A program made the position numbers and the translations under genes. The notes beneath the pieces were generated by a model. That model was not told where the DNA came from. It did not search any database and saw only the letters and a list, made by a program, of their open reading frames with translations. A stretch of DNA of 58,160 nucleotides, filler included, from Basidiobolus ranarum (lineage: Eukaryota), in NCBI GenBank assembly GCA_040143965.1. It is 6 parts of 6 records of this genome, joined end to end, with 100 filler letters (N's around TTAATTAATTAA, not from the genome) between each part and the next. Parts side by side here need not be neighbours in the genome. Positions count along the whole stretch, not along the records: positions 38,872 to 48,470 come from JASJQH010007678.1; 5 more parts are not named here. One strand, 5' to 3'. Position 1 is the stretch's first letter; every line of letters begins with the position of its first letter. Positions 2,297 to 48,570 of the stretch are shown piece after piece.

Positions 2297-2946
2297 CTCT
2301 GCAGCAACTAGTTCATCCAATTTATCCAGACCTGACATAAAGTATTTGTTAAAATGTTTCTCCTCTGCCAAGCATGAACGTTTGATGTGTTGAGCAACTA
2401 AATACAAAGATCTACCAAAGTTTCTTGCTACTTGCTAAACTCTTTAGTTATCTAATCAGATTAGTAAAAGGCGCAAAGAACTATGCTTGGTTTTTGGGTT
2501 GCTATATGGATGAGATTCGGAAACTCGGAATCAGCCCAGGCCATTTTCCCCGGTGCTGAGATTTCGTAACAGTAACTAAGTCAAACTCTCATTACTAATC
2601 CTCTTACGATATATTTAGGACTGCGGAGGCATATCTATATCACTAAATAAGGAAATAGTATAGCAAACCGCTTATTGGATCATTCAATGCTTTGTAATGA
2701 TTGAGAAATTTGGTAAGTAGAATATGCACTTCGATAACACGTGTCTGAAACTATCATTTACATTGTCGGGTGGTAGAATACAAGTGGAATCCATTGAAAA
2801 TTCACTGATTCTACCATTTATGCTCCGCAAGCATGACGCATGAATCGCTGGTGAATATAAAATGCTGATTTTCACTCTGGCCTTATTACATCCACTGTTC
2901 TTCAAGTGCTACAACTTTTCTCCGTTTTCAAAATCTACTTTAATCA

Positions 2947-4448
<1,502 letters not shown>

Positions 4449-5594
4449 ACGGGGCTCTTTAAAGTTCAAATAAACCACCAATTTAATTTCTTATGCTAAT
4501 GAGTGTCTTTTATGCTTTTTACCCATATACTTTCCATTTTCTCACAAATATCGGTAATTGGATTGGCTCCATGATGTCTCAGAATCATAAACAAGATGAA
4601 CTTCCAACCCAGCTGAGAATCACCTCATTCTTGATGAAGCTGGCACAGGGTTAATAGCTATAGTAGATGTGCTGACTGAGAGAGAAAGTCACCTGACCTT
4701 GTTCTCGAGTAAAGGGAAATTCACTCCGGTTCTTCTTGGCTCAACCTGATAAGATTAGCAAAAAGGTGCCACATGAAACACTCATTCGAACTAAGCTTCA
4801 TTCAGGAAGTGGAGCATATGAAGCAACTTAATACGGAATTTATCACTTAAGGGAATCATAGTGCAATTAATTGTGTGATCCTTGAATATTACATTATTTT
4901 GGTAGAATCCGTTGCATTATGAACTTGATGTCTATTTGTAAGCCATAAGGATCTAAAATTCTAGATTCGAATCTGCGACAATGCGATATCATCATGATTA
5001 AAAGTGGCCATGGTGAAGAAACCCACATATTATTTATTAGTGCTACATTTTTAAAATGGGATTCTTTGATGAAAATAGAACCTGCAAGTACAGTGAGAAG
5101 AATAAGTTTTGTAAATTGTGTCTTGTGACATTTTAAGTGAGTTTCATCTTGGTACCATTCATTTAATGAATACTGGGAATGCATTGAAGCATCGTACTTA
5201 AATACAATTTAAAAATACTTAGGCAATTAACTTCTTCAATGCTTCTTTACTTGATGTACATCAGGTTGAAATCAAACATCATAATGTGCAAATAGTAAAT
5301 TAGATCAAATCTTCATTCGCAGTTAATCCTTATTGTTTATCTTGGTGCCTTAAGTATAAAAGTTTATAATAATTTTCCTATATTTAGAATATAATTATTA
5401 TTGAGGTATATGGTCTTTGTAATTATTGTTAGCTCCATCTTTATTCATCTAACAATAGTTTATATCAAATCCATAAGAAATAATCAATAGGTAGCAGCAA
5501 TATGATATACTAGTTATGTGCATATAGAGATATCCTCAATTAGAGCATACAGTATATAGATACAAGGCTGTCATGCTTCTACTATATGCAATAC

Positions 5595-5954: not shown

Positions 5955-8900
5955 TAAATAGTCATATAAACTAATCCTAAGGAAGGCCTTTATTTCTCAA
6001 ATTTTGATTTAGTTAATGGTTTGGTTAATATATTGGCAATCATGTCTGCTATAGAACAATAAGTTAAATCAATAAACTATTCACTATAGTCTTGCTAATG
6101 AAGTGATATCTAATATTTATAAGTTTGCTTCTATTATGATACATATAATTTTTAGCTATTTGGTACAACTTTAATCATATTGAAATATTGTAGTTGGCAA
6201 ATTTTGAGAATAACCTAAATCTGTTGAGAGTTTTCTTAACATATTACTTCTTTTGTTGCTTCACAGGTAGGCATGTATCCTGCTTATGTTATTGAAAGAG
6301 CTATGGTAGGTTGTTTCTTAGAATTCCCAGAAATAGCTCCATTACTGCACAGAAATAGGTATCCTTTTGTGGATCTTCTGTCTTCAATAGCACTTCCCTA
6401 ATTTGCATCTGAATATCCTATCAGATCAAAGTTTGATCCAGAATATGTGTATTTTAAGCACAGATCCAAAGTACATTTCAAATACCTGAAAACCATTTAA
6501 CTGCTGTGATTTGATCAGATCTGTAATTTTGAAGGTATTGGCACACAACTCCCACAGAGTATATAGTTTTTGGCCATGTTCCTGTCATGATATATATCAA
6601 ACTACCAGCTATAGATTGATAACAAAACTTCTGGCTTTCATTTGCATCAAAGAACATCTGATTTGAGTCATGTTTGGTCAAGTTAGGATTTGTCTCCATT
6701 GGGGTAGGTACTGGGTTACATTTTTCCATTTTAAACTTCTTTAGTATATTAAGGATATACTTAGAATGGTTTAAAGCTATTGTTTTAGTAGCTCTATCCA
6801 TCCTAATTTGGATTCTAAGATAGTATATCAGTTCACTAAGATCAGTGATTTTGAATTTGGCAGATGAGCTGGATTTGGTTTTCTCCAAAGTCTATAAGTC
6901 ATTGGTAACTATAATAAGGTTATCTACATACAAGGCTAGTAGAACTGGGCCTGTCTCATCTGGCCTGAGGTACACACTTCAGTTGGCATTACTCTTGTGG
7001 AATTTGAATGTTTACAAAAAAGTATCAATCCTGCTGTTGAGAGCTCTCAGAGATTGCTTTAAGCTATAGAGTGTTTTCCAAAGTCTGCAAACCTTTTTAG
7101 GGTCTTCTGGGTCCACAAATCCATCTGTCTGGTCCATATTGATCTCCTCAGCAAGCTTACTATACAAAAAAGCAGCTTTAACATCCACTTGATGTGCAAG
7201 GAACTGATATTTAGGTGAAATTTCTAAAAACAGTCTAACTGAATTAAACTTGGATACATAAGCAAAAGTTTCATTATAATCTTTTCTTAGTATTTGAGAA
7301 TAGCCTTTGGCTACTAGTCTAGCCTTGTACCTTTCTATATTGCCATCAGAGTTGTATTTTACTTCATATACCCATTGGCAGCCAATTGATTTTCTATCAA
7401 CAGGCTAGTTGGTTAAAATCCAAATTTGCTCATATATCAAAGCCTGGTGCTTATCAGCCATTGCAGATCTCCAAGATTTTGTGTGAGGGTTATTCAAGGC
7501 CTGTTTTACAGTCTGGAATTCATGTATTTGAGCTGTGCAGGCATAGGCCCAATTTTAGGACCCATTCATATTGTAATCAAGGCTATTTCTGATCTGATTT
7601 GATATCCTGGTTTTGGATAAAGGTACTGCAACATCTAGCATTGAATTGGGCACTTCAGTAGGTATAACCTTGGTTGAAGGGTCCACAGGTATGCTATTTT
7701 CTTCATTGTTTTTGTTTGAATCAAGTTGAATGATTGGATCAGGAGAAAATTAATTTTTATCATCTTCTGAGGTAATTTTGAATGCAAATGTTGCATTTTC
7801 ATTACACAAAACATCTCTGGACTTGATTAACTTTAAAACTTTAGTAACATAGAGTCTGTATGCCTTAGTTAGAGTACAATAACCCAGCAATATGTGTTGG
7901 TTACTTTTTGGATCAAACCTAGACTGATTTTTGATCATTATTTTGAAGTAAGCACTATATCCAAAGATCCTCAAATGTATTACATCAGGTTTAACTCCAA
8001 GCCAAGCTTGATATTATGTAAAGTTAGACAGACTTCTAATAAAACTTCTATTCTTGATATATATAGCTGTAGCAACAGATTCACCCAAAAATTATGAGAT
8101 AAATTTTATGTATTTGTGATAGATCTTGCCATATCTACTATAGTCCTGTTGGCTCTTTCACCAACTCCATTTTGTTGAGGTGAATAGGATATCATAGTTT
8201 CTTGCTTAATTCCATGAACTTTGCAAAAGTGATTAAATAGTGTTGAAGTATATTCTCCACCATTATCAGTACTGTTTTCTTGATTTTAGTTGCAGTTTAA
8301 GTCTCCACAAGTGTTTTAAAGTCTCTAAGGATAGAGAGAGCTTCTTTTCTTTCCATAAAGTAGACCCAAGTGTATCTTGTATAATCATCAATAAATGTGA
8401 TTAAATATCTTTTTTCACCTAAAGATACATTTTGCACAGGTCCACACAAATCTGAACAAATTAGATCCAAATTTTTGACAGATTTGATTAAACTAGAGCT
8501 CTTGAACAGTTGCCTGGCTTATTTTCCATATTTATTACCTTCACAAATTTCCATATTGGTTAGGAGATTAATTTAAATTGCAGAAATTAGGTGATTTTTG
8601 ATCATTTTTCACAAATGATCATATCCAATATGGCCAAATCTCTTGTGACATAATTGAATAGTTGCTTGATTAGAATAACTTAGATTTACACATAAACCTC
8701 TTGGATTATTAGTAGGTTTATATATGTTCCAATACTTTTCTCCTAGAGCTAAATAAATCCCATTTTGATCAGTGATAGTGCCTCCTAACTTATCAAAATT
8801 GAATTGCAGCCCTTCTGAGATGGCCTTGCATACAGATATTAAATTCTTGGCAATATCTGGAACATATAGTACGTCCTCAAAGTATACACTCTCTCTTCAG

Positions 8901-9235
8901 AAGCTCCAGTTAAAATGACCAGAATTGTTCCCATTCCAATGGCATCCAATGTATGGTCATCTCACATGAAAACCTTTCTAGTTGGGATTTCTTCATAATG
9001 CACAAACCAATGTTTTTCATTTGTGAAATGTGGGGAGGCTCCAGAATCAATATACCATGTCTGAGAATCACTGTGGGTAGTCATAGATAGAGCAGATATG
9101 AATAAGTGATCTTTTGTTATAACCACATTTCCAGATTCAGTTTGTTTTTCTTCTTTTATAATTCTTTTAAAGCAATCTTTGCTTAAATGGCCAGTTCTTT
9201 TATAGTAATCACAGAATGTGTTATTCTTAAGCTTT

Positions 9236-9627
9236 TTTTATCACTTTTTTCTTGGACACAATGCATTTGCACATTAAATATAGAGGGTATATGAAGGTAT
9301 TTTGCAAAGTCCCAAGGATATATTACATACTTGAACTTTGGGAGTATTGGGAAAATATGGGCTGTTTGGAGGAACTTTAGAAAAGTGGCATTGTGGATAG
9401 CTTTGTGAGATAATTATTTATTGTCCAGAAATAGAGCATTTATACATTTTGATGGAAATACAGAAAACTAACACTGGGGTTGTGTTCAGAACATTTGTGG
9501 GAGTAAAATGAGCTATCTTTGGGGTAATTTGGACAAGTTTGAAATTTCCAATATGGAATTGCTAATTCTCACATTGTTCACATATATATATAATATATGT
9601 TCCAATTTTCAGCTAAGTGATATTTGA
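9236..9627. repeat. Unclassified CpG-free repeat-like sequence truncating copy B within gag
   Basis: Similarity to copy A ends just after the zinc knuckle. The following 390 bp have no CpG and no ORF. Confidence 0.3.
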
Positions 9628-9727
9628 NNNNNNNNNNNNNNNNNNNNNNNNNNNNNNNNNNNNNNNNNNNNTTAATTAATTAANNNNNNNNNNNNNNNNN
9701 NNNNNNNNNNNNNNNNNNNNNNNNNNN
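9628..9727. other. Artificial contig linker (N44-TTAATTAATTAA-N44)
   Basis: Identical 100-bp spacer with stops in all frames, present five times. Confidence 0.99.
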
Positions 9728-19347: not shown

Positions 19348-19447
19348 NNNNNNNNNNNNNNNNNNNNNNNNNNNNNNNNNNNNNNNNNNNNTTAATTAAT
19401 TAANNNNNNNNNNNNNNNNNNNNNNNNNNNNNNNNNNNNNNNNNNNN
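19348..19447. other. Artificial contig linker
   Basis: N44-TTAATTAATTAA-N44. Confidence 0.99.
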
Positions 19448-22400
19448 CTGGTGGGTGCTGCGATGTTAATTTTTGTGAGACAAGATAATATCTCCAAAAT
19501 TCGAAATATCCAAGTCTCCACGAAAAAGGTAGAGTTTATATGAAATGACTTCATGTGGATTGGTCACTAATCTGTTTACCTTACAACATGAAGACCGGTT
19601 TGAAAGGAATGGCTGGCAACAAAGGTGGAATCGGGATAAGATTTGATTTTGATGATACAAGTATCTGTCTTGTAACAGCACATTTAGCTGCAGGTATGTT
19701 GATGTCTATTAAAGTGAGTATTTCAGATTCTTACAGTCTACACCGACCATCATAAGGATCGTCTAATTTCCAGGAAAGAAACGAAGACTACGCGACTATA
19801 ACCAACGGGATTCGCTTTGCCAAGGGTCGTAGTATCGATAATCACGAGTAAGTGATTGTTAGTAATTAGAACTTCATCAAGTACTTACTTACTTCGAATT
19901 AGCTATATCATTTGGTTTGGTGACTTTAATTACCGTATCAACCTGGAATACGATGATGTAAGGACATTGTGATTCTGACGTTTTGGGTGGCTCTAACTTA
20001 TTTCATTCAAGGTTATGGATTGCATCTACAATAAGCAGCTGTCTGAGCTTCTGATGTACGATCAGGTAAGATACATCCTGATCATACTTGAATGAACCCT
20101 CGACCAATTGTATTTTTGATCATAGCTCAATCAACAAATTCAAGAGGGAAGAGCCTTTGAAGGATTCCAGGAAGGCATCATAGCCTTTGATCCTACATAC
20201 AAATACGATAATGGAACTGACACATATGACACCAGGTAAAGATACTCAACTAAACATTGCAAAATAACAACAGAGTTAACAGTCATGTAAATCAGTGAGA
20301 AGCAACGACGCCCTGCCTGGACCGGTAAGTTTTCGAATCTCCTCTGTAACCATCTCGAGTATTCTGGCTTTCTAATCACAATTGCTCTCCTCAGATCGGA
20401 TTCTTTATCGTGGAAAGAAGGTAAACTTTGTTGGATATTTAAGCATACACTTGAAGACAATGAGAGCTCAAAGGTTTTCCGATTCATAGATGTCCTTGCT
20501 TAAATACATCAATTCTAGCGTGATTCGAGTTTCTGATCATAAGCCTGGTAAATACCACTTAGAAACAAATTTACATTCATATTGCTAAACTGATTAATCT
20601 CTCTAGTAATGGGATTGTTTGAACTGGAGGTAGTTTTCCATTGGATTATCCGTTGATTAGTTTTCGTTTTAAAGTTCCGGCATTTTACTTGATAGATTGT
20701 GAAAGTAGATCACAAAGTTCGAGATCAGATCTCGCATCAGTTGTATAGTATTAAGAAGAAGGAGGTTGATCTGAATCCACGTATTGCAAATGTTGCGTTT
20801 AAACATAGCCAAGGTACCTCTCATATTGCTATGGACCCTAGTGCCCTACTAACTCTTGTGACATTAGACGAAAAGCAATACAAAGAGGAGTCTCTATTAA
20901 ACATCTCTAACGATGGTACGTTTGGGTTATCTCTTGTATCTTCGTAGATAGATACTAAATTTCATGAAATTTTAGAGACTCTGCTTGCATCTTCTGAGGA
21001 GTATGATTTAAGGAGTGGTACAGTCCTTACCTCACCTGGCTGTTCTGTCAACATCTATTTATTTGTTTTGCATAGGGAGGAGTCGCGGTGTTGCTCCTGT
21101 ATCTCGCAGTACTGACGAAAGCAGATCCAATCATTTAATGGATAGTGATAATGCTACGGAGAGATCTGGCTTGCTTCAGAAACCCAATGGTCAGTATTAA
21201 CCGGGAGAATTCAGTAATAGTTCATACACTAACTGAATGGTACACCTTTAGAATTGAAATCGATTCGTGCTGCCTCCAGTGATAATGTTAGCCTCCTTGA
21301 TCGGGATGCGTTCCTAGGAAAACCACAGTTGATCGAAATTTCCCCAGGTTATAGTTTATGTTTATATGGGAATTTTATGCAGAGATTAACGTTATTTTAG
21401 ATGAGTTAGAGACATCATGGATTCCATTGAAGCCTAAAAGTTCTTAAATTCTCTATTGATATTGGGTATGTTCTTGAAGATTGACCGCTTTATTTTAATA
21501 TTTTCTAGGTTCCACTCCTTCGGGATATCTATCACCTGTGAATATTGCCAAATCCAAGTAAGATCCAATTTATTTGCTCATCTAATTTTATACAATAATA
21601 TCTACATATTTACAAATTATCTCTAGGTCTGATAGTCAACTACTTGGACAAGTAGCTAATCCTTACACATCCACTCCTACAAATAACTCGCTCTACTCAA
21701 TGAAATATGATTCACCTAGCTTGACACCAACGCAAAATACTGAAGGTAGCTTTGGTAAATCAAGCCCCCCCGTTCCAGTGAAGAAATCCACTTCTACTTC
21801 ACCCAAGCTTGATCGTGATACATTAGCTAAGCCACTTATCCCCGAAAGAAAGTTCAAATCACCCTCAGCTTTTGCAGTGATGAAGCCATTGATCCCAGAA
21901 CGTAATGCTAAGCCTTCTGGTTCAGTTGGTGAAGAAGGACCACAAAAACCACCCCTTCCTAGTAGAAGTCCTTCTATCAGTTCTAAAGTCAGCTCCGTAG
22001 AACCTATGGTTCCAGTAAGAAGGAATGTTTCTCAAAAAACCTCCATTCTCTCCAGAAGTTCTTCAACCTCTTCCAACAATATCACTTCGGAACCCGAAAA
22101 TCTTCCCACTTTACCGCAAAGAACCAACTCGTTGAATGAAAGTGAAAAGAATGAGAGTAATTCAGTAGAAGAAAATGAAGAACATAATTCTACTACCGAT
22201 ACTGATAGTGAAGAAGAAATTTCTAAACCCGAAACAACCGATTCTAACCATTTAGAAGATTTTAATACTACTAAATGGAAACCATTAATCCCGGAAAGAA
22301 GTTCTGGTACCTCTGGTGCCTCCGGTTTATCAGATAAAGAGAATCTAAAGAAACCTTTACCTCCTACTAGAAAACCAAGAAGTCCACTCATCGGTAGTGC

Positions 22401-25014
22401 TATGTTGGAATCTAGAAATAGTGCTCAGCCAACTACTAATCTAAGGAGAACTCGTACATTAAATGATGGCAATATCAACTCTTCAAGTCAATCAGCAGAT
22501 GTAACATTAGAATCATCGATACATGGAGTTAAATCTACCCTAAAAAGAACCCCTCCACCAATCCCGGTTAGAGCTAGTGGAACTGAACTTCGAAGGGCTC
22601 GCACTATTTCCGAAGGAAATACCATGAGATCAGAGTCAGTGAAACAGCCCCTTACTGATATCTCACAAACAGAGGAAAATGTACAAGTTACAGATACTAT
22701 TCCAGACATTAGTATACCTAAGTCAACCTTGAATGTTGAGAATAAGGAGGAATTATCCAAGTCCAATCTTGAACAAGAAAAAGAAAAAGTCGATGATAAA
22801 TCACCAAATGTAGACGAAAAAAGTACTGATTTAACCGAGATCTCACCCCCCGTTAGTATCAAAGATAGAATGGCACATCTTCCTTTCAAAGGTATCAGTA
22901 ATCCATTGGGAACTTCTCGTACACCAAGTGAATCAGTGAAAGTACCTTTGGAACTCGGAAAGAAGGGAAGTACTGCCTTGAAGTCGGAGAATGAAACCTT
23001 GAATTCATCTAAATCTATTAGCTCTAACCATGGTGGCATTACTCCTAGCTCGATAGGCTCTTCATCGGTTACCAAGCTTAAAGAGCAAATGAAAAATCAA
23101 ATAGTCATGAATCCGAATCTGAATCCAAAACCATCTTTGGGAAAACCATCGACTAAAAGTATAACCACTGGACAAACCCACACCCTCGAAAAATCCAATG
23201 ATCCTCCAAAGAGTAGCGTAAAAGATAGATTAGCACAATTTTCAAGTATCAATTCTGAAAATTCCGAAAAACCCAAACCTATCATTCCATTAAGAAAACC
23301 ACGTGGAGTCAACGCACATCTGGAATCTAAGGATAAAGAAGGCAAATTGATGGATGAAAAAGTATCCAAGGAAAAAACTGATTCAGTTTCTGAATCATCT
23401 CATAGTATCGATGGTCCAACATCCCCTAAGATAATCTCGAATATTTCCAAAATATCTAAGCGAATGGAAGGTTCTTCTACTCCTTTGGTAACATCGAGTG
23501 TTAAAACTCGCATAGCTCAACTTCCAATCTCAGCTAAAGATACGAACTCGGCCTCCATCGTAGGCTCTAACAAACCATTAGGGAAAAGGTTAACCTCTGA
23601 TTCAAGCATAAAAACTACAACCGATACTACTCATGAGAAGAGTGATAACTCCAAAGTGATCCCTCAATTAAAGAAATCTACTTCGGAGCCACTTCCAGAT
23701 GGTCCAAATGTCGCACCTTCTGTTCGAAACCTTCGTGCAAAACTAGTCAATATTCCCATGGGACCTGGACTTGTCAAAAAACCTCTCGATCTACCACCCA
23801 GTAGCACCAAATCATCTCCAAGTCAAGATGAACAATCAAGTCACAATGAACCTATGAAGAATATTAACGAGCGTACAGCACCCATCCCAATGTCTAGCTT
23901 AGATATGCATAAAAAGAGACCACACCCTCGTAAAACAGCAAGAAAGAAAACCATTGTTAAACCATCAACGGATTCTAATACGAGTAGTACACATGAAACC
24001 AAATCTGAAGCTGTAGATACCTCGAAATCCATCACTCCAAATGTTACAGAACCATCAGTGAATGATGAAGCAAAGAAAAAGATAGCCAGTACTGCAGAAA
24101 GGAAATCACAACTTCAATCAATTAAGATTGATAAAGTGGATCACTCTAAACGTACAATAGATCATCTACCGAGAAAATCTCCTGAAATCGTAGCATCTTC
24201 TTCTAAAGACTTACCAGAGAAAGTGTTGACTTTGGGAGAAAGGAAGGCTAAACTTGCAAATAAGGATCATTCTGACAAAAAGAGTCCTACTTCTCCTACG
24301 GTGACGAAAACTCCTCGTGGAATACGTACGCCTATTCATCATGATGCTCCATCCACTGGTGATGTTACCAGTCCCTTGGGTATCAAGGAAAGAACAGCCA
24401 AGCTCCAATCTCAAACCGAACATAAGCCTGTTCATGGTGATGATAAGTCAACACTTAATCTGAGATCTAAGGGGAACCCAATGGGCAATATTAAGGTAAC
24501 CAAGTCAGTAGAAGATAAAAGTAGTGAGAGTATCGAAGAGAAGGTTCCAAATCTCAAAGCACGAAAAAGTGTCTTCGAGACTAAAAAACCCAATTCACCC
24601 GGTAAGTTGGTAAGTAAAGATACTATAGCTAAACCGACTTCTAAAAATACCGAAATCACTCCATCCGTCGAAGAGAAATTACCAAGTGTTAGAATGCGTA
24701 AAGATATCTTCGAAACTAAGGACACTACCAACTTGAACACTGAAAAATCTAAACTTGCCCCTGCCTCTAAACTTGTATCTGAGTTAAAAGGAAAGCAAAT
24801 CAATAATCCGGTCGGAGATAAGCCATCAAGTACTCCAGCACCAAAGGATCTGTTAACTCCCACGAAAACGGAGGAAAAGGCACCACCCGCTGCTGAGATA
24901 GATGAAAAGAATGATACTGCTAACATAGAAGAAGCCTCTAACGATGACTCTAAAATCCATGGCATTCAAGCAAGGAAGGCGTTGCTATTTGGTGAAAAGA
25001 CCAGTGCTTCATAA
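19448..25014 (+). CDS. Synaptojanin/INP52-like inositol polyphosphate 5-phosphatase (5' part missing) with a very long Pro/Ser/Lys-rich C-terminal tail
   Basis: Catalytic motifs across exons: TGLKGMAGNKGG, TAHLAAG, WFGDFNYRI, FDPTYKYD, RPAWT|DRILY, SDHKPV. A chain of GT-AG-bounded exons keeps frame into the 21627-25014 terminal exon, which contains the 1104-aa ORF. Confidence 0.88.
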
Positions 25015-29061: not shown

Positions 29062-29161
29062 NNNNNNNNNNNNNNNNNNNNNNNNNNNNNNNNNNNNNNN
29101 NNNNNTTAATTAATTAANNNNNNNNNNNNNNNNNNNNNNNNNNNNNNNNNNNNNNNNNNNN
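29062..29161. other. Artificial contig linker
   Basis: N44-TTAATTAATTAA-N44. Confidence 0.99.
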
Positions 29162-38771: not shown

Positions 38772-38871
38772 NNNNNNNNNNNNNNNNNNNNNNNNNNNNN
38801 NNNNNNNNNNNNNNNTTAATTAATTAANNNNNNNNNNNNNNNNNNNNNNNNNNNNNNNNNNNNNNNNNNNN
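38772..38871. other. Artificial contig linker
   Basis: N44-TTAATTAATTAA-N44. Confidence 0.99.
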
Positions 38872-39396
38872 ACCAACGAATGTTAGTGCCAACGATACAT
38901 AAGACTGCCCATCTACAGACTTTCGCTCCATGTTAACCAAAATCTGAAAATAAGTTTCAACCGACCATAGTACTATCGAAATCCATACCAGATGTGATGA
39001 TAACGATGAAAAGCTGCATTCAACAATTATAATTGTGGCAGTTAAAATTAAATATACAAAAGAAGTAAACAATTTGCGTTTTATGGGTACTAACGAATAT
39101 ATACCAAATTGTGCTAATATTAATAATTCTAAAATGGGCATATAAACGGCTCCAAATTTGCTAAATAGTGGCAAGTTAAAATTAAACACGAAAAAGGAAT
39201 TAAACAAACTGGCATAAAAGTTGCATGAAGCCCAAATAAAACTTAGACCCAATGTAGATTTTCGTTTAAAGTTTTTGACAATTTGGGGAAGAAGAACTAA
39301 TAGCCATATACAGTTGCTTACATATCCACATACATTAGCAATAATACACAACCATCTGCTTAGATTATAATCACAATTAACCTCCAGTATATCCAT
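38872..39396 (-). CDS. PQ-loop family membrane transporter (cystinosin/YPQ/PQLC-like), intronless, 3' truncated
   Basis: GYVSNCIWLLVLLPQIVKNFKRKSTLGLS and a second repeat YFQILVNMERKSVDGQS, with multiple TM helices. The first ATG is at 39396. Confidence 0.85.
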
Positions 39397-39459
39397 TTTA
39401 TACACATATCGTTTTTAGTTATTAAATATAGTTGAATGTCAATCAACTTTTGCATTTGG

Positions 39460-39705
39460 ATATTTTTAAAAGTTTTAAATCTGGTTTGTGAGAAGGTTCT
39501 AATTTAAGTTCGTAATTAGGTTTAAAATAAACTTGTTGCGAAATAATTTTAAAAAAAGTTTTAAATTAAGATTCGAATTAAAATCTAACTTAAACTTTGT
39601 TGCGACTCGAAATAAAATTTAAATTACAAAAAATTTTAAGTTAGATCCGAATCAAATCCTAAATTAAAGTTTTCCCGGAGATAAATTTAAAGTTTTTAAA
39701 ATTAA
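39460..39705. repeat. Degenerate AT-rich tandem and inverted repeat cluster in the island's divergent intergenic spacer
   Basis: Three related ~45-bp units (39497-39541, 39559-39605, 39634-39679). A perfect 12-bp inverted repeat ATCTAACTTAAA (39583-39594) / TTTAAGTTAGAT (39635-39646). AAAGTTTT(T)AAA recurs. Confidence 0.6.
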
Positions 39706-39825
39706 AATACAAATTAAGCTATGTTTAAAATTATTTATGATATAATTAAGCGTAATATTATATATACATAATATTTATCAAAATGTTCAAGAACTAGTGT
39801 TATAAATATGATAATTATAATAAAC

Positions 39826-40065
39826 ATGAATATATCTACGCAAACGTCAAGTAGTATTTTTTTACGTACTATTCCAACTGAAACTACATATAGTCAAATT
39901 ATTCTGCCGACTATAATACGAGTAGCTTTTGGTAGTACACAAAGTTTAAAGACACTTGGGACAGATGTAACAAAACCCCCAAAGCCGACGGTAAATATGG
40001 GCAACAAAAATTTCCGCAAATTATTTGTAGTATGTTGTATAATATCGTTGACACATTTATTGTGA
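39826..40065 (+). CDS. Small Thr/Ser-rich protein with a hydrophobic C-terminal tail (79 aa)
   Basis: Intronless ORF with the island's codon bias, ending RKLFVVCCIISLTHLL. Confidence 0.45.
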   Translation: MNISTQTSSSIFLRTIPTETTYSQIILPTIIRVAFGSTQSLKTLGTDVTKPPKPTVNMGNKNFRKLFVVCCIISLTHLL

Positions 40066-40117
40066 CTGTAAAGATGTACCATTTGTTTTTTAAAATTGCC
40101 ATAACGTGTATTAAAAT

Positions 40118-40999
40118 ATGATATTTGAATACCCAGTTACGATACCAATTAAAAAGGGGTATAGCAAAAAGATAATTTGTATATTAATGTTAGCATTGGC
40201 TATAATTATTATATGGACTATATTTGTACAAGGAAAAGCAAAAACGTGTGTATCAGAACCAAGTTATAATTTTTTGGGGAATGATATATGCGAACCATAT
40301 TATGTTCGAATTGGCGAAGAAATTCCAATAGAAACTCTTTCGACAGAAGAATTTTTGTTACATGGCATTATTATTGGATATAAAAATCCAATGAAGTACA
40401 AAGGTGAATTATTAACATGTAATATAACAGACGATAAGGATAAAAATAGTTTATTATCTAGGATAATATTTAAATATGTGGGAATTCAAAAATATACAGA
40501 TCAACAAAGTCCCGTTTATATATACGAACCGGACATGTTTTATCATATAGATTGTAAAAGCCCGGATAATTCATCTGAATATAATTTAATTATAACAGAT
40601 AAAACAAAAGGTTTCAAATCGGGGTTAATATCGGATTTTTCGACTTATATATCACAATGTACGTACCCGAATATTAAAGATTTGTTATGTTTATATACTA
40701 ACGATACCACAATAATTTCTGGGACATATTCCCAAGAATTAATTTATTGCAAAACTTTTGCTGATGGTTGCAAAGATTATAATAGAATTATGCAAAAAAG
40801 ACTTAAAACTATATATTTTGCAAAAGAATTTTCGTGTAAGAAATGTGAGTCTAAATGGTTAAAATTTACGGATATAATTACGAAAATAATTGTAAACGTT
40901 TTATCAATCATGTCTATAATATATGCTTTGTTAATATGGTTTACAAAAAAATATATTACTACAAAAGAAGAACTTAATAAACAAGTAGTGTCGGAATAA
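40118..40999 (+). CDS. Two-transmembrane protein with a ~210-aa Cys-rich ectodomain (293 aa), intronless
   Basis: MIFEYPVT start, TM1 IICILMLALAIIIIWTIFV, about 10 Cys and several N-X-S/T sequons, FSCKKC before TM2 IIVNVLSIMSIIYALLIWF, short basic tail. An 882-nt ORF at this AT content is very unlikely by chance. Confidence 0.85.
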   Translation: MIFEYPVTIPIKKGYSKKIICILMLALAIIIIWTIFVQGKAKTCVSEPSYNFLGNDICEPYYVRIGEEIPIETLSTEEFLLHGIIIGYKNPMKYKGELLTCNITDDKDKNSLLSRIIFKYVGIQKYTDQQSPVYIYEPDMFYHIDCKSPDNSSEYNLIITDKTKGFKSGLISDFSTYISQCTYPNIKDLLCLYTNDTTIISGTYSQELIYCKTFADGCKDYNRIMQKRLKTIYFAKEFSCKKCESKWLKFTDIITKIIVNVLSIMSIIYALLIWFTKKYITTKEELNKQVVSE

Positions 41000-43196
41000 T
41001 ATGTTTTTTCTAAATATTCATGGCATATTAGTTATATATAGCGGGTTATACATTTATATTTTTAAAAAAGTTTCGAGCATATTGGTCCAATCCTCGCTCG
41101 CATTGAAGGACTTGATTTTATTTTAATCCACATGCCCCTTGCAATCATTCGATTTGCCCCATAGCATTTCAGGTTCTGTATATTTTTGGATAGATCTGAT
41201 GCAAGAATAGGAAAGTAAATTCATAACTGTAACAATAGTCGCCGCCCTGCTATCGAAATGGGGTTTTTTATAACCAAAACGGTCATTGGCTGTGGGCTTC
41301 CACATGATTTACTCATATCTGTGTGTGAGCTGGGTATATCAGCAATGATCTAGTTTGGCCACATTGCACCCCCGAGTTTCCAAGGCCCATAAGGCTGTAA
41401 TGTAGCAGCAACACTGGTCAAGTAGAGTTAGCTCGTTGCTCTGTGGACCGTGTCATTTGTAGCCTTCCAATAAGCGTCGCCAGGCGCGGGGATGAGCTGA
41501 AGCTGGTTCACCAGGAATAGTCAAATCCTACACCAGATCTCGAAAGATAAATGAAGATTGGATAGCAGATTGGCTGCGAAGAGAACATTGGTGGCCACCA
41601 TTACTTATGGAAGTGTTCACAAAAGGACTTTAAGCCGGTTCGGAGTGGGGTTGGTGATTTCCAGACAAGAAGAGATTGCCTCTACAAAGTGGCACTTCAG
41701 ATCTGGCTGATCGTGATTCTAGCATCTAAATATCGTAGTTTTACAACTGATTGGTTGGTGGTATTTGATCAGTAATGGGATTGATACGATCTAGATAGGG
41801 TAAGCCATATGCTGAGCGAAAAGAAAACACTGTCCTGTTTCTCTTATCTTGATCTCCAAGACAACACCTGGCACTACGAGTAAATACGTCCCACACATCA
41901 TCATTTGGAAGACTTTGAGGTGCAGATCAAATACTCTGCTTCGTCAATCCGCAAGCATGTGTTATATACACCCTGAAGCAAAAGGAATATTAACTGGGAG
42001 CAGCGCTCGTTGAAGATCTCAGTTTGCTCATTACGCTCTGATTGCTACCATTGGCTTTTTAACTACTAAGGGCCTGAATGACAACACGAGATTGAAGTGC
42101 AATAACTAATATCTCTTGGCCAGTGAAAGTGTTCCATAGTAGTAGCAGTTTATCTCATATAGAAAAGTATGTACTAGTTTATGTATTATCAATTGTTGAT
42201 GATTCAGACATTGACGTTAATGCACAACTTAAAGCAGTACATAGAATACTGAGAAGCTAGCTTTAAGCCAGTACAATGCACTAAAATTCCTTCCGGGGAA
42301 ATTAGTCAACCTTGCCTTGAATATCGTAGGGATATGTCACCTAAATGCTAGTTCCATCAACAGTTTATGGATATGTGGATGGTATTGTTTATCGGGCACT
42401 TTGATGCACTTAGAGCGGGAGGGTTCAACTTATTCGTTGAAAATGGGCCTTGCTCGTAGCTCTTCCAGTACAAATAAGACGGTAAAGAATTACAACATGC
42501 AGATGATTTTCCGTCTCACAATAAATTCCTAGATTTATACAATTGGTCACGCGCCAATGTCATTTTAATAAACGGATCTGCTACCTCTAATATTGGAGGA
42601 ATATGGATCAAGGAAATGGAAAAGTTGTGATTCTTGGCGAAACTTGTCTCATTACTTGGTTGTGCAAATTAAAGTAGCAGGATCCTGATGTTACGTTGGT
42701 AAATTAATGCATCTACGAGAGGCAAATCTCTAAGCAAATACTGGCTCTTCCTGTCTTTACGGTCAAGATGGATGTACCATGAAACTAGTAGCCTTTTGCA
42801 CAAAGCTATGTATAAGAAAGAATCTCAAAGACTGCTCCACTAAAATCACGTAGTAATCCTTCTAATTTATCGGAGATAGTTGCCAAACTTGCTCATCCTC
42901 AGCACAGTATCCATACGTAAATTCATGCTTTCATTGACTTTGCAATATAATGTCCATCAATCGCATTCCATTCATGATTAACAGATTTGGTTTTCACAAA
43001 TCGATGATGATTTTGGTGCTAATTTGATCAAGCTAGTTTTATTCGGCTTATTCAAAATATATAAGTTTAGGCTTACCTGAAAAATTATCCAGATTTTTAT
43101 TTATGGTTGACTGAAAAATAAGCCTACAAATGGTTTCTTAACATTCCAATAATTAAGCATCATACTGCTGTATTACAGAGTAGAGCAAACTACACA

Positions 43197-45237
43197 ATGG
43201 AACTTCCTACATCGGATGCCATTCCCAAAAATGATACAGAATATAACCCAACTGTGTCCATACAAGAGAATAATAGTATGATTAGCGAAGATCAGGGTAC
43301 TGACGATTATCCAACACAACACGTAGATGCCATCGACGTAGAAATGGCCACTTCCGAACATAATGACCAAAACATCTCAGCCGAAGAACAATATTACCCA
43401 CAACCTTATCAATTGATAGATTACGACTTCACTCAAAAGTGTGTTTGTGTAGCAACAGCCGAAGATTTTACTCAAGGAGATATCACAATTAAAAGTGATC
43501 AAAATAATTTCTTCAAAAGTGCCAAATGGTAAAGATTAATTATTTGCTTTGTTGCTTTGTTTGTGCTATGGAATAATCCATTTTTCATACACAGGTCTCC
43601 AGACGGAAGCTGTTTTCTTACCAATTCCAACGATGATGTAGTTCGGGTTGTTGAGCTGTATCCTTTTCTAATGCCTTGAATTTACGCATTCAATTTTTTC
43701 AAAGCTCTATCCTCTTAAAGATTTCCTCTTAACTCAAAAGAAGTCCTACTGATATTATGGAAGTTACCGAGGGTTACTATCATTTAGCTATCCATTTCTT
43801 TAATTTCTGTAACAGCCGTTGATGTCTTTTGATATTTAGAGACGGGGTTAAAGTCAATTTCTCAGGTAACAGAGGCTGAGACTGTTTATGATGCTTCTTG
43901 GTATCCATTAATGAACGCTCAAGGTAATTATAGATGATTTGAGTGCTTCATTTCTTGTACAGCGATTGATGACCACTATATCTTATTAGATCCAGCAACC
44001 TGCTGTTTTGTCACCTCTTCTCGTGATCATCCGGTTCATCTGTGGGATGCCTACTCTGGACAAGTATGAACTGTACGAAACTTCTTTCAACAATATGATG
44101 TCTAAGATTCTTTCTAGCTACGTGGTTCTTACAGTATTGTGGATCATCGAGAGCAAATGATCGGTTCCAACTCCCTTTGCTTTAATCTAGATGGAACCAA
44201 GTAAGCATTAACAGTAACCAAGCAACCAACTTTAACGACACTAACGAACTACCTTCTGTGAAGACTCTACTGTGGCTTCAATAATTCAATTCATATCTTT
44301 GATACTGCTCGCCCCGGTCGAGATTGTTATAAAATGGCTACCACACCAACTCGTAAAAGTAAGAAGGGACAAAAAGGTTGGGTTACGAATGTTCATTTAT
44401 CACGAATATTCATGATTTCGATGGCTAACTTTCGATCTAAAATAGGTGTCATCTCCTGTATTTCATTTAATCCGGATCGCTCTGGCCTCTATGCTGCAGG
44501 CTCCTACTCAAAAACCATCGGATTGTACGCTGAAAATGAGAATAAATTGATTTCCTTGCTCAAAGGTCCACAAGGAGGCTTAACACAGGTTACTAGTCTA
44601 AATTGCTTGATGACTGTCAATGAAGTAATTTCTGATCCAGATCGTAATTAGGTTCAATTCTCTCCAGACGGGCGATACCTGTACTCAGTTTCGAGGAAAG
44701 ACAATGAGATATATTGCTGGGATATTCGTGATACTGGTGAAGTGTTATTCACTTTAAAGCGCTACGGAGATACGAATCAAAGGATATCGTTCGATATAGA
44801 TATGAGTGGACGCTACCTACTAAGCGGTGATCAGGTAATATATTGTGACACTCTCGATGATCATTGTCTTGCGGAGCTTCTAATGGCGAATTCTATCGTG
44901 TAGAATGGATCATTGACTACTTATGGCTTGAACCCATCTTCCTCTCAAGCAGAGCCCATTCTATCTTTCCCTGCTCATCAAGGTATTTCTACGCCGGTTC
45001 ATCTACAAATCCCTCCCTTCTCATGACTTTCTATACTTAGATCTTGTCTCTTCCGCATCTTTTCATCCTACTCTGCCTCTTCTCTTGACTAGTTCTGGAC
45101 AACGCAAATTCCAGATCGATGGAGATGACGAAGAGTTGACAATCGACAATTCTCTCAAAATATGGAAAGTCCCAGCTAGTTACAACTGGTACCTCGATGG
45201 GGCTATTTATAATCCACAGGTAGACGTCGAAGTATAA
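43197..45237 (+). CDS. WRAP53: WD40 protein WRAP53/TCAB1 (telomerase Cajal body protein 1; Swt21-like), multi-exon
   Basis: NNFFKSAKWSPDGSCFLTNSND, ETVYDASWYP, CCFVTSSRDHPVHLWDAYSG, LYCGFNNSIHIFDTARPGRD, GLYAAGSYSKTIGLY, TNQRISFDID. Confidence 0.9.
43658..43743 (+). other. U12-type (minor spliceosome) GT-AG intron in WRAP53
   Basis: 5' site GTATCCTTTT matches the U12 consensus RTATCCTTT. TTCCTCTTAAC branch-like sequence at 43723-43733. Tandem AAG AAG acceptors end at 43740 and 43743, and removal to either keeps the frame. Confidence 0.8.
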
Positions 45238-45705
45238 ACCTGCTCCTGCCAGGTACTACCAGTGCGTACATACAATAGCTATTAGACTATCTACTGTCCC
45301 TATTAATGAACCATTTATTTTCTGACTGATTCTTTAGTCAATTAGTTCTTGATTATCTCCAACCAACTCACACAGCGTATGGGAATTCATAAAAATTCAA
45401 GCCATAATCATAGAGAAGGTTTCCAATCATGATGGGTTGTATACAAACAAATAATCTTTTAAAATAAATAGAAAAACATCTCTTTGTTCTTCCAAATATA
45501 TAAGAGGCAGCCACATATACGAGTCAAAAATGGGTGCTTACTATTCAAAGTTCAAGTGATGTTAATTCTCGGATAAAGGCATAAGGATAAGTGGGATAAA
45601 GTTCTCAAAAAATAGCTTGTGAAAAGAAGAGAACAGTAGAATGTCAACGTAGAGAAGGCTGTGCTGATCTTCAGTGTTCACAAGCAGTATAGTAACTGCA
45701 ATGAA

Positions 45706-47782
45706 CTAACTTCGAAACTCTGGAAAATCTCGAGGGTCCCAATTTTCACGATCACATACCACCAAGGGCTCATATTTAGTTTCATCGCCTGTGGGATCAA
45801 TGCCTTGAATCGCACACACCCTAATGGCATAAGATTTAAAGAAGAGCCTATATTTAAGAACTCCACGGAAAGTTAGTTCATATGGATGTCGAAGGATTTG
45901 ATACCTAAATGAAACACAAGTGTTAGAACATCGCAAGGAAAAGCTTAGTCAAGAATTCTCATCACCATTTATTTTCCGCCTCATCAGCAACTCCTCCAGG
46001 GTTTCTCAGTCTAAACTGTGCGGTAACATTGTTCGGTGTTCCACTAATGCCATTTCCTCGATTAAACATGATGGGTTCATCAAGGTGATCCAAATTTCCA
46101 AGAAACTCGGCTGGGCGAGTGCCTGGCATCATAAAAGACTATCAAATCTCTGCCAAAAGTAGACTTTAAAACTAGAGACAAACCTCGTTTTTCTTGCAAG
46201 TTACTTCCCACCTCATTGATGATATCTTCACTACTACGAGCTATGCGACTTTCAGTATTGTTCTTTTTTATTGGAGTAGCAAAAATTCCCACATCCACAG
46301 TGGAAATCTCTACTGCCCAAATATTCCAGTTCTTCCCCTTCAAATGAGCATCAAAGACTAGCTCTTTTTCAGCCGCCAAAACATTTGTTACTGCTGTGAG
46401 AGATACATCTGTTAAAGGTATGGTGGAGAATGCGTAAATAAAGCAACACACAATTCCCAGAAAAACCAAAGACAGTGTTCCAATAAGAGGATTTCTCTTT
46501 TGTTGGTTTCTAAATAAACCGACAGTTCAATATTATTAAGCAAGTTGCGGGAGCATAACTCCCAAGTGAGTACAAACAAGTTACCTATTTCGCCTTCTCC
46601 TGGCTTCCGACGGGTTCATCTTCCAAAATAGGGGTAGAGTTTCATCAACATCTGATTGAACCCTGCTAGCTTGATGTGAAGGAGATGTATAGCCTTGGCC
46701 TCTGCGTGAAAACTCTTTACCAGGAGTCACACTCTTGTGACGATGATTGGGGGAGTTAAGCTGCGATTTGGCACCTCTTGCACCATTCTTCCACTTGGCT
46801 GAAAAGTAGCCATCGTCACCCTCTGAGTCAATGCTAGATCCTGAATCATAGAACTTGTTAGAGTTTCCTACTCTCTCATATTCCCCAGACTTGAAATACT
46901 CTCCATCTGAAACAAGAGGAGATGCGCTTTGTGATGGCACAGGGGTTCGTGGAGAGAAAAGCGGTGAATTGATAGGAGATCTACGATCTAGCTTGTCACA
47001 CAGAGGACCGCTTTTCTGATTGGCAAGTCTGCTTTGACTACGGTATTTAGGGTAAACAAACTCTTCATCTGATTCATCTACGAAATTTGTATCCTATCAG
47101 GATGATTCTAATCATGACTAATGAAAAAAATTCAATTAGATACATACCTCCAACATCACTGACATATACAGTCATCCGGGCTCCTAAATTACCTGGAAAT
47201 AGGGCTGATGGTTTACGCTCATCATTATTCAATGCTGGTCGTAGCTTTTTTTTCCCTCGCGTTTTAGAACTCATCGATCCAGGACTGGCCTGCTAAATAA
47301 TCCATTTGAATTGCAGTCAAGTAGAAGATAAATTGAAGAAAGGCTCTTACTACGGGATTTTTTTTACTTCTTAGAGAGCCACGCATGTTATTATCGGAAG
47401 CATCAACTCTTTCAATACTCAGTTCGCGCGGTTGCAAAGTGTTGACAGAAGGCTTTGTCTTGATGATTCCTCTCTTCTCACTAAGAAGGGGTTCACTAAA
47501 TATTCTTGATTTTGACCCGCCTTTATCGTCATAAGAGTTAGCTGCGCTCTCAGCATCACTATTTGGGTTTTGCTTTACATTGATAGCCAAAAGTTTGGAT
47601 TGTGAGGGTTGGGCAGACTGTAAGGAAGGGGTTCTGGTAATTTAAGTGGGGTAAATACAGAAATACTTTTAAGGGTATATTAGCACACATATATATAACC
47701 TCTTGGCGTTTTTGGAATGGAGAAAGAGTGCAGCCTGTTCATCTAACTCATGGTCATCCAGGTCTGTGAGACGGTCCAACAT
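45706..47782 (-). CDS. VAC7: Vacuolar segregation protein Vac7-like (Fab1 activator), multi-exon
   Basis: Disordered N-terminus (spliced start MLDRLTDLDDHE), one TM, then STIPLTDVSLTAVTNVLAAEKELVFD...NWNIWAVEISTVDVGIFA and ILRHPYELTFRGVLKY. Confidence 0.8.
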
Positions 47783-48470
47783 CGCTGTAATGTTGAATGG
47801 CGAACACGGGTGGAAATATGAGATAAAAAGACAACCTGTTGAAGGGAAGGCCTACTAGGCAACTATTGTGAAGGTTCAGGGTAAGAAAGTGGAGGGCGTA
47901 TAGGCAAAAGTTATTCACAAAGAAGTCAGCACTGGGTTGCTAGTATTCAGCAGCAATCCTATGAAAGCTGTATACAAGTGTTGGAATATATACAACCTTG
48001 GTGAAAATGCGAGACTCTGAGCTACATATATACTTATTTATATTGTATTTCAAACTGATAGTTTCTATTGATCTAAGTTGATTGACTTTACTCTTATATT
48101 AGATCCCTATACATCCGCTTGATTTAACATTATGATTTATTGCATAGATAGGAGGTCGAGACGATAAAATATGACAGTCACATCACCGTTTTAATCAATG
48201 GATTCAGTAGCCAATCCTCAAATGCAATTGGAGGGAGAGTTCAAATAGGAGTGGGCATTCTGCTTGCTTTGGTGACTAATTTAGGTATCTCAATTAATCT
48301 AGTGATAATTCAACAGCGAGTCTTAATGTGATGGCGTCATGTATATCATGCTAATGTAATGTACCTGTCCTACAAACTCCATCGTTTCTTAATACGCTGA
48401 GAACAAAGAATGCTAGACCCCAAAGCCACTTTCAACGAGATACGCTCAAAAGTCACCAAACACTGGGCAT

Positions 48471-48570
48471 NNNNNNNNNNNNNNNNNNNNNNNNNNNNNN
48501 NNNNNNNNNNNNNNTTAATTAATTAANNNNNNNNNNNNNNNNNNNNNNNNNNNNNNNNNNNNNNNNNNNN
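48471..48570. other. Artificial contig linker
   Basis: N44-TTAATTAATTAA-N44. Confidence 0.99.

Follow-up and report, generated by a model that had tools for sequence, protein, structure and literature searches.

Where does an AT-rich block of intronless genes come from when it stands at the very end of a contig of the early-diverging fungus Basidiobolus ranarum (assembly GCA_040143965.1)? The block covers positions 38872-41076 of the stretch of DNA that was analysed (the window; 58,160 bases), and the original prediction had read it as the edge of an endogenised giant or other large DNA virus. The window consists of six separate contig pieces of 9590-9627 bp each, and these are joined by five identical linkers (N44-TTAATTAATTAA-N44; 9628-9727, 19348-19447, 29062-29161, 38772-38871 and 48471-48570). 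Because separate contigs of ~9.6 kb thus lie end to end, features are unreadable across the linker points. The contig with the AT-rich block takes up positions 38872-48470 (9599 bp), the block being its first 2.2 kb, and the remaining five pieces were used solely as composition samples of the same assembly. We find that the compositional anomaly of the block is real and its left edge artefactual, and that its two solid genes are real and have fungal relatives. The chances are about even that the block comes from another AT-rich genome of fungal type, either through lateral acquisition or through co-assembly.

The features at the left end of the contig are the following (coordinates, strand, description).

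38772-38871, no strand: artificial linker (N44-TTAATTAATTAA-N44) between two separate contigs, outside the genome.
38872-39396, minus: intronless gene for a PQ-loop (SLC66-like) transporter, 5' part with residues 1-175 of ~278 (Pfam PF04193).
39397-40117, no strand: AT-rich spacer between the divergent genes, 24.5% GC, observed/expected (o/e) CpG ratio 1.75, with low-complexity A/T repeats and overlapping small open reading frames (ORFs).
39808-40065, plus: candidate small ORF of 85 amino acids (aa), unproven (ORF call).
39894-40082, minus: candidate small ORF of 62 aa with one hydrophobic stretch, unproven (ORF call).
40118-40999, plus: intronless gene for a 293-aa protein (open-frame statistics, a Mortierella homologue, NCBI/UniRef annotation).
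41000-41100, no strand: region 3' of the 293-aa gene, with the switch of composition (GC profile).

The left border of the block is non-biological, because position 38872 is the first base after a linker and coincides with the end of the assembled contig. The composition of the block is foreign to the host flank, as had been proposed, and this is upheld by GC content, dinucleotide signature, CpG frequency, codon usage and amino-acid make-up. The GC content is 27.1% in the block, against 39.6% in the rest of the contig and 34.7-40.7% in the other contigs. Within the block it ranges from 19.5 to 34% (200-bp windows). The four 2-kb windows with the lowest GC content of the whole stretch all lie in the block (26.3-29.2%); the next lowest, in host DNA, has 30.8%. 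The dinucleotide signature and the CpG ratio were compared with those of 171 equally long windows of host DNA. The dinucleotide distance delta* of the block to the pooled host is 0.219, whereas the host windows have a mean of 0.065 with a standard deviation (SD) of 0.024 and a maximum of 0.130, which places the signature of the block about 6 SD away from them. The CpG o/e ratio is 1.34 in the block, and in the host it has a mean of 0.61 and a maximum of 0.90. The claim that CpG is retained in the block, unlike in old host repeats, also holds, since the AT-rich diverged repeats of the host on contig 1 have ratios of only 0.02-0.29. AT-richness in this host is normally accompanied by CpG loss, so the block shows the opposite trend.

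The coding sequences follow the same direction. Nucleotides at fourfold degenerate sites are ranked A>T>G≥C in the block and T>A>C>G in 3557 host codons. The serine codon TCG is used at 11 of 41 serine positions in the block vs 30 of 321 in the host, and the isoleucine codon ATC at 1 of 60 vs 75 of 240. Residues with AT-rich codons are enriched in the proteins encoded by the block: the combined fraction of Phe, Tyr, Met, Ile, Asn and Lys (FYMINK) is 0.437 in the 293-aa protein, compared with 0.288 in its Mortierella homologue (P0007) and 0.23-0.33 in seven host ORFs.

On the right side of the block, the GC content rises from ~25% to ~40% within ~150 bp, starting from an A/T run at ~41055-41070. 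The switch begins ~60-70 bp downstream of the point where the 293-aa ORF stops. Neither a repeat nor a terminal structure was recognised at this boundary, and no repeats common to the contig of the block and the other contigs of the window were found.

The transporter gene is cut by the contig end at residue 175 of ~278. Its ORF matches PF04193 in two stretches (E 2.1e-19; 69.5 bits against a gathering cut-off of 22), and the motif LLPQIVKN is present in the translation. The closest relative is a protein of 278 aa (P0008) that is 94% identical and has the same two PQ-loop repeats above the gathering score; the pair of repeats, present in both proteins, is their likeness to the PQ-loop/SLC66 family. 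The nearest solved structure is that of cystinosin, and the similarity to it is remote (E 3e-4). Judging by its family, the protein is most likely a seven-helix solute carrier of an organelle (vacuole, lysosome or Golgi). It belongs to an uncharacterised subfamily that is marked by a conserved N-terminal NCD motif and occurs in Cunninghamella, in Mortierellaceae and in a clade that includes coral (P0004 and ENA records).

The organism-named relatives of the transporter are fungal with one exception. A search for proteins of similar length with the PQ-loop fragment gave 50 relatives among 136 candidates. The named ones comprise 20 proteins from eight genera of Mortierellaceae (53-59% identity) and a protein of Cunninghamella blakesleeana (57%). 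A search among longer proteins added two proteins of Mortierellaceae and one coral protein (46%), so that all organism-named relatives are fungal (22 from Mortierellaceae, one from Cunninghamella) except for the single coral record. The ORF is colinear with the M. alpina protein P0002 from residue 6/7 onwards. A quick maximum-likelihood tree of 55 rows was built, from which the non-PQ-loop proteins P0001, P0006 and P0007 were left out and in which the fused models P0002 and P0003 were shortened to residues 1-300 and 1-215, respectively. In this tree the ORF and P0008 (SH-aLRT support 100) fall outside the clade of Mortierellaceae (99) and form a polytomy with P0029, and Cunninghamella branches one node further out. 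The pairwise identities among the ORF, P0029, Cunninghamella and Mortierella are 50-61%, that is, the four are roughly equidistant, and the gene therefore belongs to a deep-branching fungal lineage of its own, at the Mucoromycota grade.

Both solid genes of the block are single ORFs, and this lack of introns had been counted among the foreign traits. For the transporter the argument fails. A Mortierella-like orthologue on a metagenome contig (L001; 49% GC) is likewise a single unbroken ORF of 876 nt, and the absence of introns is therefore a trait of the PQ-loop family and not a mark of foreignness. Contig L001 also carries, beside its PQ-loop gene, two tandem paralogues of ~900 aa (2850-5558 and 6027-8753 of that contig) and a third, partial copy at the contig start.

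The second solid gene (coding part 40118-40996) is annotated in NCBI/UniRef on the contig of the block. Its open frame of 294 codons was reached in none of 1000 Markov resamples of the block, the longest frame in the resamples being 182 codons. By this result and by the PF04193 match, the two ORFs that had been proposed to encode a PQ-loop transporter and a Cys-rich protein with two transmembrane (TM) helices are confirmed as real. The 293-aa protein has a short N-terminus, a TM helix, a Cys-rich and beta-rich middle part of ~210 aa with ten Cys residues and three N-x-S/T sites, a CxxC motif and a second TM helix. An AlphaFold2 model calculated from a two-sequence alignment has helices at residues 15-38 and 246-292 and a strand-rich middle, all at low confidence (mean pLDDT 39). 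Going by the sequence, the protein should be anchored as a hairpin, its N- and C-terminus facing the cytosol and its domain rich in disulfides, which is probably glycosylated, facing the lumen or the cell exterior, and it is probably a glycoprotein of the secretory pathway or of the cell surface.

When 1.84 billion representatives were searched exhaustively by phmmer, the 293-aa protein had three matches: the protein itself, a Lodderomyces protein (P0006) and a Mortierella protein (P0007). The Lodderomyces match was rejected as compositional, since it is broken into 14 stretches of 19% identity in a repeat protein rich in Thr, Ser and Glu. The sole credible homologue is P0007, a hypothetical protein of 316 aa from Mortierella antarctica and M. 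alpina (KAF9931172.1 / KAF9980945.1), with E 8.8e-7 in the library-wide search, E 4e-13 in the full-length pairwise comparison, and an end-to-end alignment. The two proteins have in common the N-terminal motif YP..P..K.Y, the first TM helix, the Cys positions, and a C.KC motif right before the second TM helix, which is followed by a short tail in both. They differ in sequence (22-26% identity) and in the FYMINK fraction given above. Neither of them is matched by any Pfam family. For the 293-aa protein, the ESM Atlas gave no usable feature match and structural matches with TM-scores of at most 0.27, and a search of PDB sequences gave only chance-level matches to the TM region of CCR6. Together with its Mortierella homologue, the protein makes up a small orphan family. 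As both solid genes have kin in Mortierella, they point to the same region of the fungal tree. P0007 and the orthologue of the PQ-loop protein (P0022) are encoded on separate contigs in M. alpina strain BGZ67, hence the adjacency of the two genes in the block is not conserved.

A third gene, for a small tail-anchored protein, had been placed between these two and is unproven. The A/T repeats of the spacer are short and imperfect. Three small overlapping candidate ORFs were called in it (85 aa on the plus strand, 62 and 63 aa on the minus strand), and none of them matches a Pfam family. The longest open frame of the spacer, 97 codons, is marginally unusual, being reached in 16 of 1000 resamples. 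The frame of the 62-codon ORF stays open for 52 further codons beyond a single TGA (39742-40082, minus strand) and contains two hydrophobic stretches if read through. Translated with TGA as Trp, it has no Pfam match; it may be a decayed or misread gene for a small membrane protein, or a product of chance.

To account for these features, we suggest that the block is fungal cellular DNA with two divergent, intronless and intact genes, which most likely evolved in a different genome, one of a Mucoromycota-grade fungus that is AT-rich and does not deplete CpG. The block would then have joined the host DNA in vivo, by lateral acquisition or insertion, or else in silico, in which case a second organism would have been co-assembled with a chimeric join at the A/T run of ~41055-41070. 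A low-complexity A/T run, as present at the switch, is the kind of site where a chimeric join could occur.

Several observations weigh against this explanation. The PQ-loop ORF taken alone is mildly deviant: its GC content at third codon positions (GC3) is 0.29, compared with 0.26-0.59 in the other open frames of at least 120 codons, its CpG o/e ratio of 0.81 is within the host range, and its usage of fourfold degenerate sites is within the range of individual host genes. It follows that the spacer and the 293-aa gene contribute much of the compositional signal. The amount of sequence is small, with 2.2 kb and 468 codons. No donor, second end of the block or insertion hallmark is in evidence. 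The data are compatible with transfer in vivo as well as with an assembly chimera, and the divergence of the PQ-loop gene may be that of the host lineage itself.

The last point belongs to a serious rival explanation, which we regard as possible, if somewhat unlikely. The two genes could be native, that is, inherited vertically by the host with no transfer, and lie in a locally AT-rich, unmethylated stretch. Such a stretch could be a region of low recombination or special chromatin; alternatively, fast-evolving lineage-specific genes could have drifted towards non-coding composition. The relatives of both genes are indeed fungal, and the distance between the PQ-loop protein and Mortierella is about that between Cunninghamella and Mortierella, as expected for a vertical lineage of Mucoromycota grade, but the codon choice in the block goes beyond what AT pressure alone would produce, most clearly in the excess of TCG. 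Similarly, the GC3 and CpG values of the PQ-loop ORF are near the host range, yet for the block as a whole no other 2.2-kb stretch in the remaining 56 kb approaches its delta* or CpG ratio, and AT-richness elsewhere in the host goes with loss of CpG and not with excess. The intronless Mortierella-like orthologue of the transporter, the annotation of the 293-aa protein on this contig in the public record and the presence of ordinary host genes on the same contig are all consistent with native genes; the completion of the switch in ~150 bp, just past a stop codon, is not what this explanation would lead one to expect.

The viral edge of the original prediction is unsupported by our results, in view of the fungal relatives of the genes, the lack of kin in IMG/VR and the lack of hallmark domains. 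In this explanation, which we consider improbable, the block would be the margin of an endogenised member of Nucleocytoviricota or of another large mobile DNA element, with membrane-protein genes anciently captured from a fungal host. An AT-rich, intronless and CpG-undepleted block that has spacers of very high AT content and meets the host DNA at a sharp boundary is compatible with it, and since the contig stops within the block, the greater part of the putative element would be located beyond view. In composition, intron content and gene density the block is unlike the host, yet these properties are not specific to viruses. Its coding density is 64-72%, with a spacer of 720 bp, which is low for such viruses, as giant viruses typically have a higher coding density. 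The boundary has no repeat or terminal structure. Four scans of IMG/VR, made with the 293-aa protein alone and aligned to P0007 and, for the transporter, with the PQ-loop alignment and with P0008, found 0 relatives of either gene; these scans are pattern-based and detect fairly close kin only. A tblastn comparison with phage records found no relative, and no viral name occurs among the PQ-loop matches. The organism-named relatives of both solid genes are all cellular, and all fungal except for the coral record. Among the hallmark genes, major capsid protein, PolB, A32 ATPase, D5 primase-helicase and VLTF3 were looked for by Pfam in the ORFs of the block, whose visible extent is 2.2 kb, and in 14 other frames of the window, and none was found, nor was any other virus-specific gene seen in the scanned ORFs. 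This agrees with the earlier remark that the block contains no hallmark viral gene.

Nesting of the proteins among intron-containing, syntenic fungal orthologues had been named in advance as the pattern contrary to a viral origin. The nesting is fungal, but the orthologues are neither intron-containing nor syntenic. Giant-virus insertions in fungi are reported, with a 1.5-Mb region in Rhizophagus irregularis (PMC10640383) and insertions in zoosporic fungi (Mycodnaviridae; PMC13533422). The viral idea is a reasonable one, but its support here is confined to composition. With these elements the block shares the compositional contrast, the absence of introns and the border to host genes of ordinary kind, and it differs from them in having no hallmark genes or viral relatives, a visible extent of 2.2 kb and a lower coding density. 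We also considered a variant in which a large AT-rich DNA element, either viral or mobile in another way, is specific to a lineage of Mucoromycota-grade fungi and carries anciently captured fungal genes for membrane proteins. The block would be its visible edge, P0008 a second copy in another dataset, and the hallmarks would lie beyond the contig end; this is a shade less probable again.

Repeat-induced point mutation (RIP) is another source of AT-rich DNA. It makes AT-rich isochores in Dikarya, and to our knowledge it has not been established outside this group. The block resembles such isochores in being sharply delimited and AT-rich and in carrying a gene for a small Cys-rich protein, and both RIP indices are shifted in the direction of RIP (TpA/ApT 0.97 in the block vs 0.80 in the host; (CpA+TpG)/(ApC+GpT) 1.01 vs 1.31). 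It differs from them in that the block has no repeat in common with the rest of the window, the ORFs of the block (175+ and 293 codons) are intact, and the host repeats decay by CpG loss. A RIP-type isochore was rejected, given the missing repeat substrate within the window and ORFs that are not riddled with stop codons.

Mollicutes-related endobacteria of fungi are AT-rich and carry fungal-derived genes, and co-assembled or inserted DNA of such a bacterium would match the low GC content, the absence of introns and the one small candidate ORF that is open through TGA, but this origin is nearly excluded, because all eight Trp codons are TGG and the two solid genes contain no in-frame TGA, which makes a code with TGA for Trp unlikely, because bacterial relatives are absent from the matches of both genes, and because a nuclear gene agrees better with a spacer of 720 bp and with a seven-helix PQ-loop protein of eukaryote type.

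If the join at the right side of the block is real, it places a small and recent piece of foreign DNA of fungal type, with intact genes, inside an early-diverging fungus, and the block would be a useful marker of lateral transfer or of an unseen mobile element; such events are poorly documented in these fungi. If the join is a chimera, the assembly contains a second AT-rich organism, and the annotated 293-aa protein is credited to the wrong one. The label of a giant-virus edge should not be propagated in either case.

The remainder of the contig, to the right of the switch, contains the following features.

41101-43121, no strand: host-like DNA with few ORFs, 40% GC and a CpG o/e ratio of 0.64 (ORF, Rfam, tRNA and Pfam scans).
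43122-45237, plus: intron-interrupted exons of a TCAB1/WRAP53 homologue (WD40), with pieces in different reading frames (best matched by Telomerase Cajal body protein 1, PDB 7bgb_K, with E 4.5e-17).
46080-47641, minus: exons of a VAC7 homologue (Pfam PF12751 Vac7, E 3e-12).

The presence of host WRAP53 and VAC7 on the contig of the block was correctly recognised from the beginning. In the ESM Atlas, the Vac7 exon falls into generic fungal Vac7 clusters. The segment next to the switch has little coding capacity: positions 41031-42245 contain no open frame of at least 70 aa, and in 41101-43121 this length is reached only by 42245-42532 (95 codons). The same segment gave no Rfam, tRNA or significant Pfam match, and it may be a degraded element. 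Rfam and tRNA scans found nothing in the contig or in the whole window.

Conservation of gene order around the block was examined on eight metagenome loci (L001-L008). A tblastn search with P0001, P0007 and the open frames of at least 50 aa from 41100-48470 gave no match on these loci, and neither did a search with 209 open frames of the whole window, the PQ-loop frame being handled separately. Homologues of the 293-aa protein, TCAB1 or VAC7 were not found on these loci. Accordingly, no conserved synteny of the block was seen in L001-L008 or in M. alpina BGZ67.

Outside the contig of the block, an unbroken ORF of 1104 aa (21700-25014, plus strand) contains no Pfam domain, and its exact sequence does not occur in the protein collection. 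The product is rich in Ser, Thr, Pro and Lys and looks disordered. Of six host ORFs looked up by exact sequence, two occur in the protein collection, each as a singleton at the 90% identity level. Two direct copies of ~1.2 kb on contig 1 (184-1362 and 8021-9223) are 78.6% identical and lie ~7.8 kb apart, and the region 7600-9627, which spans the second copy, has a CpG o/e ratio of 0.02. The pair has the appearance of long terminal repeats, now decayed and heavily depleted of CpG, from an old retroelement. An AT-rich dispersed host repeat of ~340 bp is present on contig 1 (5594-5939 and 2055-2268) and on contig 6 (49584-49927), with 81-85% identity between its copies.

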